Assembly: GCA_000505065.1 (NCBI GenBank)
Contig: AWSN01000001.1
Span: forward strand, 559,929 to 623,928
DNA length: 64,000 bases
From: Parcubacteria bacterium RAAC4_OD1_1
Lineage (GTDB): Bacteria > Patescibacteriota > Minisyncoccia > Phycocordibacterales > UBA9973
Direction of reading: 5' to 3'
The position numbers and the translations under genes were made by a program. Below the pieces are notes generated by a model. The model did no database searches and had not been told where the DNA came from. It worked only from the letters and a program-made list of their open reading frames with translations. Positions within the stretch are counted from its first letter, which is position 1, and the number at the start of each line of letters is the position of its first letter. Below are positions 38,143 to 59,797 of the stretch, piece after piece.

Positions 38143-39204
38143 ATGAAAAAAATGAAAGTATTAGATCTTTTTTCTGGTGTTGGTGGTCTTAGTTATGGTT
38201 TTAAAATGGCAGGTTTTAATATCGCAGGAGCGATAGATTTTGAAAAATCATTTGTTGAATCAATGAAAAAAAATCATTCACATACAGAAGTATTTTGGGG
38301 TGATATAAGAGATATAGAACCAGAAAAAGTAAAAAATAAAATAGGAAATATTGATATTATAGTGGGAGGTCCACCATGCCAAGGTTTTTCTCTTAAGGGA
38401 CAAAGAAAAGGTCTTGAAGATGAAAGGAATTTTTTATTTAAAGAATACATAAAATATATAGCTTACTTTAAGCCGAAGTTTTTTGTTATGGAAAATGTTC
38501 CTAACATTCTTAGCGAAAAAGATGGTTACTTTAAAGATCAAATATTAAAAGAATTTAATAAATTAGGATATAAGGTTACATATGGTATTTTAAATGCTTC
38601 GGATTTTGGTGTTCCTCAGAACAGAAGAAGGGCTATTTTTTTAGGAACAAGATTAAAAAAAGAAATTGAACTCCCAAAGAGAATTATAAAAGAAAAAGTT
38701 ACAGTTTGGGATGCTATTTCTGATTTAGCATATTTGGATTCCGGAGAAGGATATTTTGAATCAAATTACAAGACAAAACCATTATCAGAATATCAAAAAA
38801 TATTAAGAAAAAATTCTAAAAAATTATTTAATCATCAAGCAACAAATCATTCAGTCATAGCAATTGATAGATTAAAACGAATACCACCAGAGAAAGGAAA
38901 AGAGTATTTACAAGAAAGGATATCTTCTACTTTTGGTCAAACATGGGGAAGATTGGAAAAAAATAAGCAGAGCCCAACAATTGTTACAAGATTTGATACA
39001 CCTTCAAATGGAAAAAATTCTCACCCTTTCTTAAATAGAGCAATTACCCCTAGAGAAGCTGCTAGAATACAATCTTTTCCAGATCATTTTATTTTTTATG
39101 GTAATAAAACATCAGTAAATAAACAAATAGGTAATGCTGTTCCTCCTTTGCTTGGCAAAGCTATAGCAGATAGTATAATAAAGTATATAAGACAAAATAA
39201 TTAG
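38143..39204 (+). CDS. DNA (cytosine-5)-methyltransferase
   Basis: 353 aa; DLFSGVGGLSYGF, GGPPCQGFS, ENV, QIGNAVPP. Confidence 0.9.
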   Translation: MKKMKVLDLFSGVGGLSYGFKMAGFNIAGAIDFEKSFVESMKKNHSHTEVFWGDIRDIEPEKVKNKIGNIDIIVGGPPCQGFSLKGQRKGLEDERNFLFKEYIKYIAYFKPKFFVMENVPNILSEKDGYFKDQILKEFNKLGYKVTYGILNASDFGVPQNRRRAIFLGTRLKKEIELPKRIIKEKVTVWDAISDLAYLDSGEGYFESNYKTKPLSEYQKILRKNSKKLFNHQATNHSVIAIDRLKRIPPEKGKEYLQERISSTFGQTWGRLEKNKQSPTIVTRFDTPSNGKNSHPFLNRAITPREAARIQSFPDHFIFYGNKTSVNKQIGNAVPPLLGKAIADSIIKYIRQNN

Positions 39205-39208
39205 TTTT

Positions 39209-39850
39209 ATGATAAACCAAGTACACAACATAGATGCCTTGAAATTACTAAAAGCTATTAAAGATAAATCAATTGATCTTTTTTTAACAGATATCCCTTA
39301 TGAAAAAGTTAATAAAAAATCAAATGGCTTAAGAAAATTGGACAAAGAAAAAGCTAACACAAAAACATTTGAATTGAAAGATTTTCTTGTTCAGGTAGAT
39401 AGAGTAACAAAAGGAAGTGGATATATTTTTTGTGGAAAGGAACAAGTTTCTATAATTTTTGAATTCTTTGACCAAAAGAAATACACAACAAGATTAATGA
39501 TCTGGGAAAAAACAAATCCAAGTCCAATGAATTGTCAATACTCATGGATGAGCGGAATTGAAACTTTTATTTATTTTAAGAAACCGAACGCTACGTTTAA
39601 TGAACATTACAAAAATAGTGTTTTAAGATTCCCGAATGGTCAAAGCAAGAAACATCCAACAGAAAAACCATTAAAATTATTTAAATATTTAATAGAAGTT
39701 AGTTCTAATAAGGGTGATTTAGTTTGTGATCCATGTGTAGGTTCTGGTACTACAGCTGTAGCTTCTAAAATGCTAAGTAGAAATTTTTTGGTTGGTGATA
39801 TTGATGAAAATTATTGTAAGTTAACACAAAAGAGACTAATTATTAGTTAA
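39209..39850 (+). CDS. Beta-class N4-cytosine/N6-adenine DNA methyltransferase
   Basis: 213 aa; N-terminal LTDIPYE (motif IV variant of DPPY), C-terminal motif I VCDPCVGSGTTAVAS. Confidence 0.7.
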   Translation: MINQVHNIDALKLLKAIKDKSIDLFLTDIPYEKVNKKSNGLRKLDKEKANTKTFELKDFLVQVDRVTKGSGYIFCGKEQVSIIFEFFDQKKYTTRLMIWEKTNPSPMNCQYSWMSGIETFIYFKKPNATFNEHYKNSVLRFPNGQSKKHPTEKPLKLFKYLIEVSSNKGDLVCDPCVGSGTTAVASKMLSRNFLVGDIDENYCKLTQKRLIIS

Positions 39851-39861
39851 TTTTTTATTTT

Positions 39862-41028
39862 ATGATAAATATTAATCAATTATTAAATAAACCAATTGAA
39901 ACCTTATTAGCAGTTTTTTTTAATACCACTAAAAATAAAGAAAATAATTTTGAAGTATGTTCAAGATATCGTCAAACTAAATTTGCTAAATTACCTAAAA
40001 ATTCATATGAACAGACAGCTATTAGTTTATCAAATAAATATAAATTAAATTTCAATTCTAATGGAAAAGGGTTAATTATTTCAATTATTAATAATAATCA
40101 TAATTATGATCTTAATGATTTTTTAAATGTCGTTTATGATTCAATTGTTGTTAAGTTAAATAAATTACCTAGTAATTATTTACTTGATGTTGAAATAGCT
40201 TTAGCTCTATTTATGTTTCGTGGAAGTGTAGATTTTAATAGGAGTTTTTATTCTGTTGATTTAAAAAATCCCACAAAGGATTACATTGATAATTTTTTTA
40301 AGGTTCTTTTATCATCAGATGATTTATTATCTCGTCTAAATTTAAATTTCCGCGAATTACAACCCCAATATGTTGAAGGTAGAAATTTAAGAAACACACA
40401 AGTCAGAATAAACTTAAAGTGGTTTTATGATAATGTGATATTAAATTTTAGTAATATTAATAAATATAAAACAGATATTTTTTTTAAAAATATTGCGAAG
40501 TTAGGAGAAATAAGAAAATATAATATTTTTGAAGAAAGAATAATATTATATAAACAATCTATTTTTGGTAGAAAATTAAATAAAAATGAAATAAATAAAC
40601 TTAGAAATGAATTACAATTTAGTTTAAATGATGAACAAACTAAGGGTAATAAATTTTCTATTAGAAATCAAAAAATTGTTTCTTACGCAAGAGAAATATT
40701 TAATGATGTTTGTGTTGGTTGTAATTATACTTATAATATTAAAGATCGTTCTTTTAAAATGCCACGAAACGATAGATATTATTTTGAGATAAATCATGTT
40801 ATTGCTTATTCTAGTGATTCTGTTGTGGTAGATGTATTAGATAATTTAGTAAAACTTTGTCCTACTTGCCATAGAGCTTTAACACCTGGAAGAGCTTATG
40901 AGGAATTACAAAAAACAATTATAAAAAATATGTTAAATTCTAGAAAAGAAGTAAGTAGATTTGTTGATTTAATGAAACCAAAAGAATTTAAGTCGTCTAT
41001 TGATTATGTATATAAAATGTTGAAATAA
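39862..41028 (+). CDS. Putative HNH-family restriction endonuclease
   Basis: 388 aa after two methyltransferases; C-terminal CVGCNY...YFEINHVIAY...KLCPTCHRAL (C-x2-C / H-N-H / C-x2-C). Confidence 0.6.
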   Translation: MININQLLNKPIETLLAVFFNTTKNKENNFEVCSRYRQTKFAKLPKNSYEQTAISLSNKYKLNFNSNGKGLIISIINNNHNYDLNDFLNVVYDSIVVKLNKLPSNYLLDVEIALALFMFRGSVDFNRSFYSVDLKNPTKDYIDNFFKVLLSSDDLLSRLNLNFRELQPQYVEGRNLRNTQVRINLKWFYDNVILNFSNINKYKTDIFFKNIAKLGEIRKYNIFEERIILYKQSIFGRKLNKNEINKLRNELQFSLNDEQTKGNKFSIRNQKIVSYAREIFNDVCVGCNYTYNIKDRSFKMPRNDRYYFEINHVIAYSSDSVVVDVLDNLVKLCPTCHRALTPGRAYEELQKTIIKNMLNSRKEVSRFVDLMKPKEFKSSIDYVYKMLK

Positions 41029-41050
41029 TTTTCATAATTATTTTTAATAA

Positions 41051-41659
41051 ATGAAAAAAGAAATCCTTGAAATTTTTAAAGAAAATGTTGATATTAATCG
41101 TCTTATGAAAGATGAACAGAATATTAATATTAGTTATAAGGATAACTCATATTTTATTTCATATGTTGAATTTTTAAAATATTTTAAGGATTTAAATAAA
41201 ATAACAATACATAATATGATTATCGGTATAAATTTTACTCATGGATGGATGCCTACTATTTTTGATTTCAGATCTAATAATTTTGATGAAGTTGTTAAAA
41301 TATTAAATAATACCAAACAGGGAATAATTCCTAATATAGACCAGCTAGAAATTCTTAAAAAATGTTTCAATAATTCATTAGTTGGATCTTCAAAGATTTT
41401 ACATTTTATAAATCCAGATAAATTTGCTATTTGGGATAGTCGAGTATTTCGTTATTTAACTAATAAAAAATATGGAATTGATAATTGTAAATATTATTTA
41501 GATTATTTAAAATTTTTTGAATATATAACAAATAAACCGGAATATAATAAAATTCACGAATCAATTATAAATAAAGTTGATTATGAAATGACAAAATTTA
41601 GAACATTAGAACTTATTATGTATATTAAAGGGAAGAAAAATAAATTAAATAAAATATAA
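41051..41659 (+). CDS. Hypothetical protein; paralog of 18229..18735 (HhH-GPD-like motif)
   Basis: 202 aa; SSKILHFINPDKFAIWDSRV region aligns with the island-1 paralog. Confidence 0.35.
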   Translation: MKKEILEIFKENVDINRLMKDEQNINISYKDNSYFISYVEFLKYFKDLNKITIHNMIIGINFTHGWMPTIFDFRSNNFDEVVKILNNTKQGIIPNIDQLEILKKCFNNSLVGSSKILHFINPDKFAIWDSRVFRYLTNKKYGIDNCKYYLDYLKFFEYITNKPEYNKIHESIINKVDYEMTKFRTLELIMYIKGKKNKLNKI

Positions 41660-45421: not shown

Positions 45422-45508
45422 GGAAGCGTGGCTGAGTGGTTTAAGGCACTTGTCTTGAAAACAAGGGACTATGAAAGTGGTCCGTGAGTTCGAATCTCAC
45501 CGCTTCCG
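45422..45508 (+). tRNA. tRNA-Ser (anticodon TGA), long variable arm
   Basis: Acceptor ggaagcg/cgcttcc, D-arm gctgagtggtttaaggc, anticodon loop cTTGAaa, variable arm ggactatgaaagtggtcc, T-arm gagttcgaatctcac. Confidence 0.8.
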
Positions 45509-45578
45509 CAGGAAAAATAAAGTATCGGAAGACTCATAGGCATATATTTTGATATGTCTATTTGTTTTTTCAACTATT

Positions 45579-45854
45579 CTAAAGATTAGCTCTTAACCAA
45601 TTAACAACTTCTGGTTTAAGATTTAAGCTACCCCAATCTTTACCTATTTCTATAACAAGTAATTTATCATTTGAATGCATTAATGGTTGTAGTCTTCTAG
45701 CTATATCTATCGCTGTTAAATCACTTTTTATTATAAAAACAGATTCAAGTGGTTTAGACCAATATGCAACTTTAGTTATTGCATTTCTTAGATTTTGATA
45801 AGAAGTTATAGGTTGTCCACCTATTAAATCATATGATATTAAATAATTTTTCAT
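45579..45854 (-). CDS. Cas2/VapD-like small protein (putative endoribonuclease fold)
   Basis: 91 aa; MKNYLISYDL...SVFIIKSDLTAIDIARRL...LLVIEI follows the Cas2 pattern (YDI...SVFEC...RRL...VRIY); no cas1 or array nearby. Confidence 0.35.
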   Translation of the reverse strand: MKNYLISYDLIGGQPITSYQNLRNAITKVAYWSKPLESVFIIKSDLTAIDIARRLQPLMHSNDKLLVIEIGKDWGSLNLKPEVVNWLRANL

Positions 45855-45855
45855 T

Positions 45856-46779
45856 TTAATTAGTTACTTGTTCATTATTTAATAAAGATGAGTCAACCCC
45901 GACCACAGAGGACCCCACAACAACTTCATTTTCTACAATCTCTTTTTCATTATCAAACAACGGAACATAATTCTTTTCTGTTATATATTTTATAAATTCT
46001 TCTAAATTTAGAATCGAAAACAATTTACCTGATTTATCATGAAACTCTTTTACTAAAGATCTTCTTGGAAAAATTTTATCATTTCTCTTTTTTTCTTCCC
46101 AAAAATCATCTTTAGTTTCCTCAGTAACAAGAATTATTGGTTTTGATAAATTTTCTGAATAATCAAGTATCTGAAACCATGCTATTGTATCACCATTACT
46201 TTTACCAATATCTGATACCCCAGGTTGTTTTTTAATTCTTGCTCTTTTATTTATCTCCGATTCTATTGCTGATTTTTTATCATCATCATAATCATTCCCA
46301 ATTTTATCTTTTAAGATTTTTTCTAATCTTTTTAAAATTATGTCATTTTCTGGTTCTCTCCAGTCAGGATTACATTTATTTTTATTAATTTTATTTTTTT
46401 GTCTAGTGATTGTATTTTGTAAATCTTTTACTATAGAGTCTATTTTAAGAGTAAAATGCTCTTGATCATTAAAATAACTTGAATATAAGTCTTTTTCTAA
46501 TGAATCTAATTTCCCAATAACTATTTCTTTTCTTTTAAATTCTTGGTCAATTCTATCTTTTCTATTCTTATAGAATTCACTACAGAATTGATAAGGTATC
46601 CAAACTCTATCTTTTTTCGATAAATCATCCATCATTTTTAAAATAGAATTTCTCTTTTTATTCTTATATCCATACAATCTCAAAAGAGCACACGCATCAA
46701 ATACAAAAATTGCATTTTTCTTCATTCGGATTAATTCTTTCTTTGTTGGGTGATAATATTCCCAAAAACTATCTTTCAT
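45856..46779 (-). CDS. PIN-like nuclease domain protein (split PIN with long insertion)
   Basis: 307 aa; N-terminal AIFVFDACALLRLY and C-terminal PIILVTEETKDDF. Confidence 0.5.
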   Translation of the reverse strand: MKDSFWEYYHPTKKELIRMKKNAIFVFDACALLRLYGYKNKKRNSILKMMDDLSKKDRVWIPYQFCSEFYKNRKDRIDQEFKRKEIVIGKLDSLEKDLYSSYFNDQEHFTLKIDSIVKDLQNTITRQKNKINKNKCNPDWREPENDIILKRLEKILKDKIGNDYDDDKKSAIESEINKRARIKKQPGVSDIGKSNGDTIAWFQILDYSENLSKPIILVTEETKDDFWEEKKRNDKIFPRRSLVKEFHDKSGKLFSILNLEEFIKYITEKNYVPLFDNEKEIVENEVVVGSSVVGVDSSLLNNEQVTN

Positions 46780-46781
46780 AA

Positions 46782-46955
46782 TTATATTTTTATTTTAATA
46801 ATTTTACCCTTATTTTGACAATTTCCGTTTGTACATTCAAATTCAAAATATCCATTCCATTTATGTGCAGATTGCCCTTCTTCCATTTTTCTAGCAAATG
46901 GACCTATTTGATGCATTAATTCATTACATTTTTCACAGTTAATATTCTGTTCCAT
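46782..46955 (-). CDS. Possible 57-aa zinc-ribbon protein
   Basis: MEQNINCEKCNELMHQIGPFARKMEEGQSAHKWNGYFEFECTNGNCQNKGKIIKIKI; CxxC...CxxxxC. Confidence 0.3.
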   Translation of the reverse strand: MEQNINCEKCNELMHQIGPFARKMEEGQSAHKWNGYFEFECTNGNCQNKGKIIKIKI

Positions 46956-46996: not shown

Positions 46997-47548
46997 CTAA
47001 ATTATATTAATAATTCCATCCATCATCTTAATCTTTGATTTAAAGCATCCCATTAATTCTCTCTTCTCTTCATTTGAACCACTTCTGAGCACATACTTGG
47101 CGTAAGTTTTAAGATTAATTTCCTTATGCTTTTTATTTGAATTATTTATCTCAAGTACTCCTTTATTAAAATTATTTATCCTCTTCGATTCTTCTTCAAA
47201 CTTAATTTGCAATCCAACATCATTCACATCTATTTTATCTATCAACTTTATAAGTTGCTCTATTAACTCTTCTTCTCTTAAATATTCATTCTTACAGTGC
47301 CTATCTTTCGATCTTCCACATCCATAATAAATATATTTAGCTACCGTTCCATTCTTAAGTTTTTTGTATTTCTCTTCAGCTGATATTCCAGAACCACATA
47401 AACCACAGGTCATTAATTTAGTGAATGCAAACTCATGATTCTCTCTTAATTGCTCTTTTGCTTCCTTATTCCACCTTCTTGGATTATACTCACAAGGTTT
47501 TAGAGTATTAATGTCTGCATACTCTATTTTCAAGTTATCTTTCGACAT
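46997..47548 (-). pseudogene. Truncated large serine recombinase (only C-terminal zinc-ribbon/coiled-coil part; catalytic N-domain missing)
   Basis: LMTCGLCGSGISAEEKYKKLKNGTVAKYIYYGCGRSKDRHCKNEY = recombinase zinc-beta-ribbon motif; 183 aa is far too short for an intact enzyme. Confidence 0.55.
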
Positions 47549-47635: not shown

Positions 47636-48337
47636 CTACTTTTTTCCAAGTTTCTTAAAACGAATTTTTCTGGTTGATTCTAATTTTCTAGGAATATCAT
47701 AAATATCTTTTGTCTTTATTTTCTTTCCAGTATCTGCTTTAACATTTTCTGCAATTTCTTTTGCACTTAATCTATATTCCTTGAAAGATTCTGGGTCACA
47801 AACATTTCTATTTTTATAATATTTTTCAACAACTAATTTTGGCTCAATATTTTTCAATGGTCTTATTTCATTCAAATATTTATCAAAATAATCATTTGTT
47901 ATTTCTTTTAACTTAATTAAATCTTTATCTGTTAATTTTTCGTGTACCTTTACATTCACAGATTTTTTATTTTTATCCAGCCAGAAAGAAAAAGGCGGAA
48001 TTGGATATTTAACTTTATTGAAATAAATAAAATGTTCAATTATTGAGGAATAATGTTCAGGTAAATTAAATTCATTGATTATCTCTTTGATTCCATCGGC
48101 TAATATATTAAGAGGTCTTTCTCCTTCGTCTAACTTAGTAATTATTTTTCCCATTAGCAATTGACTATATATTTCTTTATCTATATCATCGGTTTCTTCA
48201 CTAAACATTTCTTTCGGAATTCCAATACTTTTTCTTATATTCTCAACTTTTTCTATAAACTCATCCATGGAAAATAACAACAAAATATTGTCCATTTCTT
48301 TGCTTCCAAGACTTCTTTTATTCTTATTTTTCTTCAT
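47636..48337 (-). CDS. Hypothetical protein
   Basis: 233 aa, Lys-rich termini. Confidence 0.4.
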   Translation of the reverse strand: MKKNKNKRSLGSKEMDNILLLFSMDEFIEKVENIRKSIGIPKEMFSEETDDIDKEIYSQLLMGKIITKLDEGERPLNILADGIKEIINEFNLPEHYSSIIEHFIYFNKVKYPIPPFSFWLDKNKKSVNVKVHEKLTDKDLIKLKEITNDYFDKYLNEIRPLKNIEPKLVVEKYYKNRNVCDPESFKEYRLSAKEIAENVKADTGKKIKTKDIYDIPRKLESTRKIRFKKLGKK

Positions 48338-48417: not shown

Positions 48418-49248
48418 ATGAAAGAGAATATGCCATATAGAAATGATCCACCATTAAACATTAATGTATTTAGACATGGTGAATCAGAATATAAACAAAA
48501 AGATGTATCGATAGAAAATGCAAATGATTTAACCGAGAAAGGAATAGAAGATGTTAAAGATAGCGCGGTAAAATTATCTGAATTAATTAAACCAGAAGAA
48601 GAGGTTGAAATTTGGTCTTCACCTACAAGTAGAACATTACAAACTTCAAAAATAATTAGTGAGACACTAAAAAATAAAGGAATCCACATTAGAGAAAAGG
48701 GGTGTGATAACAATTTTGGAGTCAAAGTTTTTGATCAGCTATCTGAGGTAAAAAATTTTTCATGGAAGCTTTTTTATCCACTTGTTAATGGTGGTGATGT
48801 TGAATTCGAAGGAGAAAAGTTTCTTGTTGATAAAAAATTTACCAATCCACTTGATATTCATCTTAATGAATATTTTTCTAAAAATGGGATAGCTACCATT
48901 GATATAGATTATAAGAAAACATTACCCAGTAATTACGTAAAAGAAATAGATGGATTTGAAAAGTTTACAGATGCAGTAAGAAGAATTATCATACCGCTAT
49001 CAAGATTAAAAAAAATTAAAGATAAACCCTACCGTATAATCATGGTTACACATGATGTTTTTTCTGGATTTATTGCTAATATATTTTCTGCAGGAGAAGA
49101 TAGTGAAAAACATACTATTAATCCGGGAGAATTTATAAACATTGAACGGGATAATGATAAGTTAGTTGCTACTAAAGTTGGAGACTTTAGTGATGGAAAT
49201 AAAGATACTGATATAATTGAAGAATTTAATAATAAGTATGGTTCTTAA
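48418..49248 (+). CDS. Histidine phosphatase superfamily (phosphoglycerate mutase-like) protein
   Basis: 276 aa; NVFRHGESEYK (RHG catalytic motif), later H in TLQTS region. Confidence 0.55.
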   Translation: MKENMPYRNDPPLNINVFRHGESEYKQKDVSIENANDLTEKGIEDVKDSAVKLSELIKPEEEVEIWSSPTSRTLQTSKIISETLKNKGIHIREKGCDNNFGVKVFDQLSEVKNFSWKLFYPLVNGGDVEFEGEKFLVDKKFTNPLDIHLNEYFSKNGIATIDIDYKKTLPSNYVKEIDGFEKFTDAVRRIIIPLSRLKKIKDKPYRIIMVTHDVFSGFIANIFSAGEDSEKHTINPGEFINIERDNDKLVATKVGDFSDGNKDTDIIEEFNNKYGS

Positions 49249-58588: not shown

Positions 58589-59797
58589 CTAGATTTCATC
58601 TAATGCTTCATCTACTAGATCCAAAGATTCTTCAGCTAGATCTTTCGCTTCTTCATAATCTTCTTCATCAAAAGCTTCTTCAGCATCATCTAGTAAATCT
58701 TTCGCTTCATCAAGTAAGTCTTCAGCATCATCAACGTCTTCTCCATCTTCATCAGCCTCATTTATTTCATCATCCGCATCATTTATTGCATCTTTTGCGT
58801 CATCTATTGTTTCTTCTGCATCATCTTTGTCACTATTTTTACCTATTGCATCAATGGCATCATTTGCTAAATCTTTTGCTTCGTCGGCTAAATCTTCTGC
58901 TTCTTCATAATCTTCTTCATCAAAAGCTTCTTTTGATTTTTCTAGTGTGTCATTGGCATCATCTAATATTTCTTCTGCTTCATCTATATCTTTATCATTA
59001 TCTTCAGCCTCGTCAATCTTGTCTTTAGCCTCATCGATTTTATCTTCTGCTTTATCTATAATATTTTCTACTTCATCTTTTAAAGATTCTCCACCTGCAT
59101 CTTCAAAAGCATCTTCTGCATTCTTGTATGCATCATCAGCGTAATCATAAGCATCACTATAATCTTTATCTATAAGAGCAATAATTGCGTCAAATAAATC
59201 TTCTTTAGCATCCTCTAGGTTACCTTCAGATGAAGAAGTATTTTCATCACTATCCTCAATCTGATCTTCTGCGTCGTTAATCATCACTATTGCTTCCTTT
59301 ATTCTTTTCATAGCTTTTCCTTGCTCTCCTGTATTGGGGATAGTTGTAGATGGGGTATTTGTAGTTTCGTCTGGCTTACATTTTTTACCAGTTGTAATAT
59401 CATATATAGCAGATGAAGAACAATCAGTTGAAACAGTATTTGTATTTGTCGTATTAGAAGTATTACTATTAGTAGTTTTGATTAATGAATTATATTTCAT
59501 TCTAGATTTCATCCCAAAATATCCTTTGGATGGAGTTATGTTGTTTGCTATTTGCCAGCGGATAAGAGCTTTTTGTGTTAACTCTCCAAAATTTTCAGTT
59601 TCATTCCCCAAAGAGCCCACCCCAGAAGAAGATATTGTATATCCAGAATTATTTAGATATTCTTGTAAGCAACGAACATCTTCACCTTTAGAATCAATTT
59701 CTAAATCTCTAGTAAATTCACAACTAGATGCACTTACATTTAAAGCTAAAAACCCAACGATAAAAATAAATAATGTTTTAAAAATTTTTGTATACAT
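58589..59797 (-). CDS. Secreted protein with N-terminal peptidoglycan-binding-like domain and long acidic (D/E/A) repeat region
   Basis: 402 aa; signal peptide; CLQEYLNNSGY...ALIRWQIANNI (PG_binding_1-like); C-terminal (DEAEDxxDxAKD)n. Confidence 0.6.
   Translation of the reverse strand: MYTKIFKTLFIFIVGFLALNVSASSCEFTRDLEIDSKGEDVRCLQEYLNNSGYTISSSGVGSLGNETENFGELTQKALIRWQIANNITPSKGYFGMKSRMKYNSLIKTTNSNTSNTTNTNTVSTDCSSSAIYDITTGKKCKPDETTNTPSTTIPNTGEQGKAMKRIKEAIVMINDAEDQIEDSDENTSSSEGNLEDAKEDLFDAIIALIDKDYSDAYDYADDAYKNAEDAFEDAGGESLKDEVENIIDKAEDKIDEAKDKIDEAEDNDKDIDEAEEILDDANDTLEKSKEAFDEEDYEEAEDLADEAKDLANDAIDAIGKNSDKDDAEETIDDAKDAINDADDEINEADEDGEDVDDAEDLLDEAKDLLDDAEEAFDEEDYEEAKDLAEESLDLVDEALDEI

Follow-up and report, generated by a model that had tools for sequence, protein, structure and literature searches.

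The genome of Parcubacteria bacterium RAAC4_OD1_1 carries, in a stretch of 64,000 nucleotides (nt) analysed here (NCBI GenBank assembly GCA_000505065.1, contig AWSN01000001.1, positions 559,929 to 623,928; hereafter the window), a pair of genes for a predicted PIN_8 nuclease and a small Cas2-like protein. With a probability of roughly one half, what this locus holds is a mobile two-gene nuclease conflict module in orphan form, in which a PIN_8 effector would be kept latent by a Cas2-like dimer partner. What leads to a conflict module of this kind—be it of the toxin–antitoxin (TA), abortive-infection or addiction type—is the combination of conserved catalytic-type residues, operonic coupling, exchangeable partners and nesting in restriction–modification (R-M) operons and mobile elements. 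Judged from these comparisons, the pair probably provides additional defence or addiction; a sequence-only reading of the window had tentatively put it forward as a candidate TA or stand-alone defence pair.

The gene pair and its two protein families

The pair consists of the following genes, with sizes in amino acids (aa):

45856–46779, minus strand: predicted short-form PIN_8 (PF18476) nuclease gene, 307 aa
45579–45854, minus strand: predicted non-CRISPR Cas2-superfamily gene, 91 aa

Both open reading frames (ORFs) had been called by the sequence-only reading as 307- and 91-aa proteins 1 nt apart, and both were recovered at these coordinates. Since the 91-aa gene starts 1 nt (45855) past the PIN_8 stop codon on the same strand, translational coupling is likely; the two genes are also predicted to be co-transcribed, and a promoter and terminator scan around the operon showed no difference from shuffled sequence. 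Relative to the nearest homologous locus (L006; loci used for comparison are given as L numbers), the small gene has a ratio of nonsynonymous to synonymous substitution rates (dN/dS) of 0.09 and PIN_8 one of 0.25, with dS near saturation, and homologues of both proteins align over their full length. The low dN/dS and the full-length alignments argue for real genes rather than chance ORFs, and both are intact and, when compared with L006, shaped by purifying selection. The two genes, adjacent, co-directional and conserved together with partner swapping across the family, thereby show a trait of type II TA systems.

The 307-aa protein matches the complete Pfam PIN_8 profile (positions 1–227 of 227; expectation value (E) 8e-38, 131 bits at a cutoff of 26.1), with a weaker match to PIN_12/DUF4935 and a match to PHROG 9788 (E 2e-46). 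In PIN_8 alignments of 14 and 76 sequences, D28, E68 and D197 show no variation and D225 has a conservation of at least 90%; further conserved positions are R58/W60, R179, P186/G187, D190 and W201, the conservation of R58 being taken from the 14-sequence alignment. D28, E68, D197 and D225 together make up the acidic residues that an active PIN nuclease should have, and nuclease activity is thus predicted. The earlier description of the protein as PIN-like therefore finds good support in the profile match and the conserved acidic residues. An AlphaFold 2 model (mean predicted local distance difference test (pLDDT) score 86.7) consists of a PIN-type β/α core with large, long helical inserts and ends in a disordered, acidic, Ser-rich tail, residues 277–307, where pLDDT falls below 50. 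With Foldseek, no significant counterpart of the model turned up in the PDB, VapC alone appearing at E >1, and Pfam detects no DNA-binding domain in either window protein. PIN_8 has been placed in the VapC-like group of PIN domains with ‘function unknown’, and genes of the related DUF4935 (PIN_12) family are mostly monocistronic (Matelska et al. 2017, PMC5499597). The window protein resembles these families in its full-length PIN_8 match and its predicted active-site acidic residues, but differs in being short, in lacking a C-terminal domain and in having a separate small partner.

For the 91-aa protein, the Pfam Cas2 profile (PF09827) scores below threshold (13.4 bits at a gathering cutoff of 23.8, E 0.09). 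Sub-threshold matches to the same profile recur in 9 of 19 family members, the best at E 1.9e-4. The AlphaFold 2 model (pLDDT 89) is ferredoxin-like, with the order β1-α1-β2-β3-α2-β4(-β5)-α3, and nearly all of its top Foldseek matches in the PDB are Cas2 proteins (1zpw, 6k2e, 4es1 to 4es3, 5h1o, 4qr0, 8d3l; probability about 1, template-modelling score 0.52–0.61), with the type V antitoxin GhoS (2LLZ) lower in the list. While a profile built from 19 small-protein sequences found nothing relevant among PDB sequences, the two best matches of a 140-sequence profile were again Cas2 (7mi4_E, E 0.1; 4es1, E 0.21), in alignments that superpose Y8-D9, S38-V-F/W and D63-x-L-x-V on the Cas2 motifs. Although no single one of these matches is significant, the combined sequence and structure matches indicate a divergent member of the Cas2 superfamily rather than a mere fold analogue.

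Clustering at 50% identity gives 4,032 representatives (E ≤ 1e-3) of this large family, which also matches PHROG 1090 (E 1e-19). Among 153 representatives, Y8 is conserved in 100%, D9 in 93%, S38 in 93%, D63 in 98% and W86 in 97%. D9 lies at the C-terminal end of β1, the catalytic position of Cas2 and VapD, and aligns with the YD of 7mi4_E and 4es1. The peptides quoted in the sequence-only reading are all present and coincide with the most conserved blocks of both families: FVFDAC contains D28 and ILVTEETKDD contains D225 of PIN_8, and in the small-protein family the three blocks of highest conservation are YLISYDL, SVFIIKSD and LLVIEI. Its remote Cas2/VapD likeness, claimed there from residue spacing, is borne out by the PF09827 matches in relatives, the Cas2 proteins at the top of the Foldseek list and the aligned motifs.

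Public names of family members are inconsistent, ranging from ‘sinR-like’ and ‘putative SinR-like protein’ to ‘hypothetical protein’ and ‘CRISPR-associated protein Cas2’; this concerns gp05 of phage phiFL1A (L214), Cytobacillus proteins (L001 to L003) and a Paenibacillus protein (P0030).

RefSeq applies the Cas2 name to a few Bacillales members, which, together with the weak PF09827 similarity, could suggest that the small gene is a degenerate remnant of an adaptation module of a CRISPR-Cas system. Such a leftover is effectively refuted by the genomic context. No CRISPR-like array was found in the 64-kb window by Tandem Repeats Finder (TRF) and a direct-repeat scan, or in 132 family-member loci (884 kb) by a k-mer spacing scan. 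Neither were cas genes present among the about 15 annotated neighbours in the window, where the search for cas1 was not exhaustive over the 72 ORFs, or seen among the annotated neighbours in the family loci. Moreover, the family is a coherent clade with its own, distinct partners. Of the earlier statement that the 64 kb hold neither cas1 nor an array, the part on arrays thus stands, and the part on cas genes stands for the about 15 annotated neighbours.

With CRISPR Cas2 proteins (1zpw, TT1823 of T. thermophilus; 4es1 of B. halodurans; 7mi4 and 8d3l of type I-C systems), the family protein shares the Y-D, S-V-F/W and D-x-L-x-V motifs. It differs from them in an additional C-terminal helix that bears the conserved Trp, in partnering PIN nucleases and R-M genes instead of Cas1, and in remaining below the Pfam threshold. 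Further comparable proteins are VapD (of VapD-VapX) and BPSL1038 of Burkholderia pseudomallei (PDB 7VXR), stand-alone Cas2-like nucleases that have the non-CRISPR Cas2 fold and the β1 Asp in common with the family and that, like its members, occur on or near mobile elements.

Conservation of the pair and its genomic homes

The sequence-only reading had made its proposal depend on a Cas2/VapD fold of the small protein and on the two genes being neighbours elsewhere. In the model, the fold comes out Cas2-like, and the pair is adjacent in many unrelated loci. A PIN_8 gene abuts the small gene in L004/L005, L006/L007, L010 to L012, L049 and L051, as well as in 7 of 37 GTDB species loci and 9 of 70 metagenome loci; with duplicates removed, this is the case for 16 of 99 distinct small proteins. 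The adjacency is kept at 35–45% identity of the small protein in Patescibacteria, gammaproteobacterial metagenome-assembled genomes and Cloacimonadota. It occurs in both gene orders (inverted in L043, L045, L196 and L218), and alternative partners are found on both sides.

Most PIN_8 proteins met in this analysis are single-gene, prophage-borne proteins of 400–500 aa. In 80 viral and prophage loci, all PIN_8 ORFs except one fragment measure 350–556 aa, and none of the 80 has a Cas2-like gene within 4 kb of PIN_8. This long form bears an additional C-terminal region that is absent from the short form. In a reverse test, four short-form PIN_8 proteins (334–344 aa) were picked from the homologue list with the small protein ignored, and a small gene abuts PIN_8 in four of four: it is Cas2-like in L217 and L218 and belongs to families unrelated to the Cas2-like proteins in the other two loci:

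L216, 4047–4421: small partner of PIN_8, 124 aa, no family match
L219, 3089–3433: small partner of PIN_8, 114 aa, no family match

The contrast between these four loci and the viral and prophage set argues that only the short form of PIN_8 depends on a separate small partner. The partners in L216 and L219 hint at a wider set of exchangeable PIN_8 partners.

The idea that the small protein is the detached C-terminal domain of long-form PIN_8 was also considered and is unsupported at the sequence level: a hidden Markov model of the small protein matched none of 144 PIN_8 homologues, and hhalign gave a probability below 1% between the small-protein profile and aligned long-form C-termini.

For most relatives, this home is an R-M operon, which can be regarded as the natural setting of the module. 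The small genes nearest to that of the window (68–74% identity) lie in type III R-M operons of the layout Mod-PIN_8-small-Res (L010/L011, L049, L051), with gaps or overlaps of 2–4 nt between the genes, and the same layout recurs in the metagenome contigs L163, L164 and L168. At 64% identity, L050 has the order small-KAP NTPase-Res. The slot of PIN_8 between Mod and the small gene can be filled by PIN_12 (L150, L153, L154), and a protein of about 210 aa without known function likewise takes the place of PIN_8 in L161, L162 and L018. In type II R-M contexts, the pair follows an N6/N4 methyltransferase and a MutH-like gene (L021), precedes DpnII (L041, in the order PIN_8-small-DpnII) or ends the series Dam-364 aa-PIN_8-small (L004/L151). 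The homologues in L010, L049, L051, L163, L164, L168 and L021 are thus nested within an R-M operon, which the window locus is not. Genes nested within multi-gene defence systems are often defences themselves (‘guilt-by-embedding’, bioRxiv 10.1101/2024.01.29.577857).

Such contexts would also suit two non-toxic proteins that serve R-M systems as accessory subunits or regulators, for example in the timing of res or the processing of DNA ends, in which case the window copy would be a functionless relic. The tight packing between mod and res with its 2–4-nt gaps or overlaps, the occurrence of the small protein next to type I, II and III R-M genes and the deletion scars of the window island (the start of a ParB-methyltransferase joined to the C-terminus of a recombinase, see below) are in line with this view. 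We nevertheless regard it as improbable. The window genes are intact and subject to purifying selection in comparison with L006, which itself has no adjacent mod or res. The pair also occurs without R-M genes nearby in L179, L217, L218 and L036, in the last of these downstream of rpsI, and the small protein also turns up in the lysogeny modules of phages and on very small plasmids that lack R-M genes.

In two distantly related lineages of the Candidate Phyla Radiation (CPR; L004/L151 and L036), the pair lies directly 3′ of the rpsD-rpoA-rplQ-rplM-rpsI cluster, which suggests an insertion hot spot after rpsI.

Small genes without PIN_8 are likewise found in defence-like and mobile surroundings. 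In L042, the gene adjoins that of a SAVED-domain protein, and in L133 it stands beside a metallo-β-lactamase-fold protein gene in a serine-recombinase element at tRNA-Ser. On Acinetobacter plasmids it is preceded by a helix–turn–helix (HTH) gene and located upstream of a cluster of type I R-M, NucS and abortive-infection (Abi) genes. Klebsiella ColE1-type plasmids of 4 kb (L213, plasmid pHNLW22-3, positions 13–810) carry it as the third gene of a three-gene operon; the preceding genes, for a 72-aa protein resembling ribbon–helix–helix (RHH) proteins and a 100-aa predicted membrane protein, give the operon the look of a three-gene TA cassette. In the Enterococcus phage phiFL1A, gp05 (L214) is the small protein, encoded in the lysogeny module on the strand of the serine integrase, ImmA and HTH genes. 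In prophage-like regions of Cytobacillus, the small gene stands alone, with neighbours on the opposite strand. Non-CRISPR Cas2 homologues have been described beside resolvases on mobile and selfish elements, with an analogy drawn to PrrC (Makarova et al. 2012, PMC3506569).

Finally, LexA-like S24 repressor genes are located directly upstream of the small gene in 12 of the 99 loci, and in the Saccharibacteria contigs L008 and L009 it directly precedes a Y-family (IMS) polymerase gene. These neighbours, as well as the ImmA/HTH modules next to the small gene in phiFL1A and L133, might point to a factor of the SOS or DNA-damage response, that is, a LexA-controlled nuclease or repair protein whose pairing with PIN_8 would serve the processing of DNA or RNA after damage instead of conflict with phages. 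This appears very improbable, as neither the window nor the PIN_8-paired loci have adjacent LexA or repair genes and association with R-M and mobile elements predominates among PIN_8-paired members. The LexA linkage itself was discarded as broad evidence because 9 GTDB cases share the synteny of envelope-biosynthesis genes, meaning that it reflects few independent events.

Proposed mechanism and competing explanations

In the mechanism that we favour, PIN_8 and the Cas2-like protein would form a complex in which a dimer of the latter is indispensable to the PIN_8 effector as its regulator or scaffold. This role is proposed by analogy, on the one hand with Cas2 in the Cas1-Cas2 complex and on the other with single-gene long-form PIN_8, which has its own C-terminal domain. 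PIN_8 is taken as the effector because it must be so in the single-gene long forms. The dimer would keep PIN_8 latent, possibly via the conserved, disordered acidic tail of the latter, until a trigger—phage interference with the associated R-M enzyme, element loss and DNA damage are candidates—releases the nuclease activity, and cleavage of RNA or DNA would then arrest the cell or the invader. Inside R-M operons, typically of the order mod-PIN-Cas2-like-res, the pair may act as a PrrC-like second-line backup or as an addiction device; in the window genome, the carrier element would have lost its R-M genes and recombinase, leaving the pair to persist alone by tRNA-Ser. The physical complex, the identity of the effector subunit, the trigger and toxicity are all inferred.

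Acidic tails are a recurrent feature of the upstream partners. All three classes (PIN_8, PIN_12 and the 210-aa family) carry acidic, Ser-rich C-terminal tails whose motifs are class-specific, namely V-[VI]-G-[SA]-[DE] in PIN_8 and PIN_12 and K-T-S-D-P-I in the 210-aa family. Such a tail, located within 45856–45950 in the window PIN_8 gene, could be a docking or neutralising segment.

Several findings weigh against PIN_8 as a latent effector held by a Cas2-like partner. Residues of the catalytic type in Cas2 and VapD are kept in 93–100% of the 153 small-protein representatives, a pattern more in keeping with an enzyme than with a passive inhibitor. The small gene often follows genes of DNA-binding proteins (LexA-like S24 proteins and, on plasmids and phages, those of the HTH or RHH type), the very layout to be expected if the small protein itself were the toxin. 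None of the recognised partners lies beside 55 of the 99 family members. No PIN_8::Cas2-like fusion was found, and the small protein has no profile similarity to long-form PIN_8 C-termini. PADLOC-DB v2.0.0 contains no family matching either protein at E ≤ 1, and NCBIfam gave no informative match to either. Lastly, the window pair has no adjacent mod or res, so a mechanism coupled to R-M cannot operate there as such.

Some of these points feed the main rival explanation, in which toxicity resides in the small Cas2/VapD-like protein, as an endoribonuclease of the VapD type, and its neighbours neutralise or repress it. In other loci, these neighbours would be antitoxin-like DNA-binding proteins (RHH, HTH, LexA-like). 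In the window, neutralisation would fall to the disordered acidic end of PIN_8, in the manner of a type II antitoxin tail, and the PIN domain would contribute another activity. VapD, itself a homologue of Cas2, is known to be a toxin (PMC3506569). The small protein measures about 90 aa, and 93–98% of the 153 representatives retain its Asp, Ser and Asp of the Cas2 type, the first Asp aligning with that of Cas2 β1. The operon of the Klebsiella plasmids is headed by the 72-aa RHH-like gene, an HTH gene precedes the small gene on the Acinetobacter plasmids and LexA-like S24 repressors lie directly upstream in the 12 loci mentioned above. Acidic Ser-rich tails are shared by PIN_8, PIN_12 and 210-aa partners, with disorder predicted for that of the window PIN_8. 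Yet, the small genes of prophages are often solitary, flanked by genes on the opposite strand and without an obvious antitoxin, the LexA-linked cases largely represent one syntenic chromosomal lineage and the full catalytic set of PIN_8 is unexpected for a mere antitoxin. On balance, we consider a toxic small protein unlikely, albeit a serious contender.

A more speculative idea, with a slim chance of being correct, is that the Cas2-like protein is an integral subunit of a hitherto unrecognised four-gene type III R-M variant (Mod-PIN-Cas2-like-Res), with its dimer bridging the nucleases on DNA in the way that Cas2 links Cas1. If true, this would reveal a CRISPR-independent, possibly ancestral role of Cas2 as a nuclease scaffold and would make the orphan window pair the minimal core of such a machine.

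Returning to the latent PIN_8 effector, a parallel can be drawn with the anticodon nucleases PrrC and RloC. In both cases the nuclease genes, here those of the relatives, are nested in an R-M operon, a likeness that suggests a latent second-line effector. The differences are that PrrC and RloC are ABC-ATPase-HEPN proteins associated with type I R-M, whereas the present system has two components, PIN and Cas2-like, that the host systems of the relatives are of type III or II and that the window copy lies outside any R-M operon.

The constituent superfamilies, PIN and Cas2/VapD, are known, and the logic of the pair resembles that of toxins linked to R-M systems or mobile elements. For the pair itself, the split into short and long PIN_8 and the Mod-PIN-Cas2-like-Res layout, there is no entry in PADLOC v2 or NCBIfam and no literature description was found; specifically, no account of the pair was found in the literature on PIN_8/DUF4935, on stand-alone Cas2 or on R-M systems with PIN or Cas2. 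Cas2 is universal in CRISPR systems, while its own activity and evolutionary origin are debated, and the family described here provides a concrete, testable case of the Cas2 fold outside of adaptation. It also gives a context and a candidate function to PIN_8, listed as ‘function unknown’ in the published classification. Should the pair be a defence or addiction device, it would add a new two-gene system, which would be of relevance for CPR bacteria with their small genomes and few recognised defences.

The island at tRNA-Ser and its surroundings

The pair is flanked by the following features:

45422–45509, plus strand: tRNA-Ser(TGA), predicted by ARAGORN, convergent with the pair and 69 nt beyond the small gene
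46782–46955, minus strand: 57-aa zinc-ribbon-like ORF (CxxC...CxxxxC), ending 2 nt before the PIN_8 start
46997–47548, minus strand: 183-aa apparent chimeric remnant, whose sole Pfam match is Zn_ribbon_recom (E 2e-9)
47636–48337, minus strand: 233-aa ORF without a family match, probably the far end of the island

The tRNA-Ser gene is the presumed former integration target, and the same tRNA-Ser 3′ segment borders the related element L133. The sequence-only reading had placed the pair next to an attachment site: the neighbouring tRNA-Ser is there, but exact and approximate searches of the window revealed no second copy of its 3′ end or flank that could be an att repeat.

The 183-aa ORF has the look of a chimera created by deletion in frame: residues 1–35 match the N-terminus of a 444-aa protein with ParB_N and N6_N4_Mtase domains (L025), and the remainder corresponds to the zinc-ribbon/C-terminal part of a large serine recombinase, without the catalytic domain; it shares 50–67% identity with the C-terminal portions of the recombinases of L006, L133, L042 and L040. 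Related loci have kept intact recombinases, which are carried near the small gene. The composition of the chimera implies that the island formerly carried a methyltransferase and an integrase, and, given the recombinase remnant, the window pair appears to have survived intact where an integrative element of about 2.9 kb at tRNA-Ser has decayed. Beyond the 233-aa ORF, housekeeping genes resume at 48418 with His_Phos and alanine racemase genes.

The 57-aa zinc-ribbon ORF was rejected as a conserved third gene. It may be co-transcribed with PIN_8; however, its membership of the module is doubtful because it is not conserved in related loci: tblastn found no match in any of the fetched loci, and there was no significant match in Pfam, PADLOC or NCBIfam (DUF6431 sub-threshold, E 0.11).

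Neither a res gene nor another copy of the pair exists in the 64-kb window. The window does contain a cluster with R-M-like content about 4 kb from the pair, with housekeeping genes and a tRNA-Arg gene in between:

38143–41659, plus strand: methyltransferase/HNH cluster with a G+C content of 0.19–0.30, encoding methylases of the C5 cytosine (353 aa) and N6/N4 (213 aa) types, an HNH-motif protein (388 aa) and a 202-aa protein

Among the PADLOC matches listed, at least three to four proteins encoded in the window are methyltransferase-like. Elsewhere, a 402-aa ORF (58589–59797, minus strand) comprises imperfect repeats of 21 nt (7 residues), detected both as the repeat families D1/D2 and by TRF, and probably encodes a repetitive acidic, coiled-coil-like protein.

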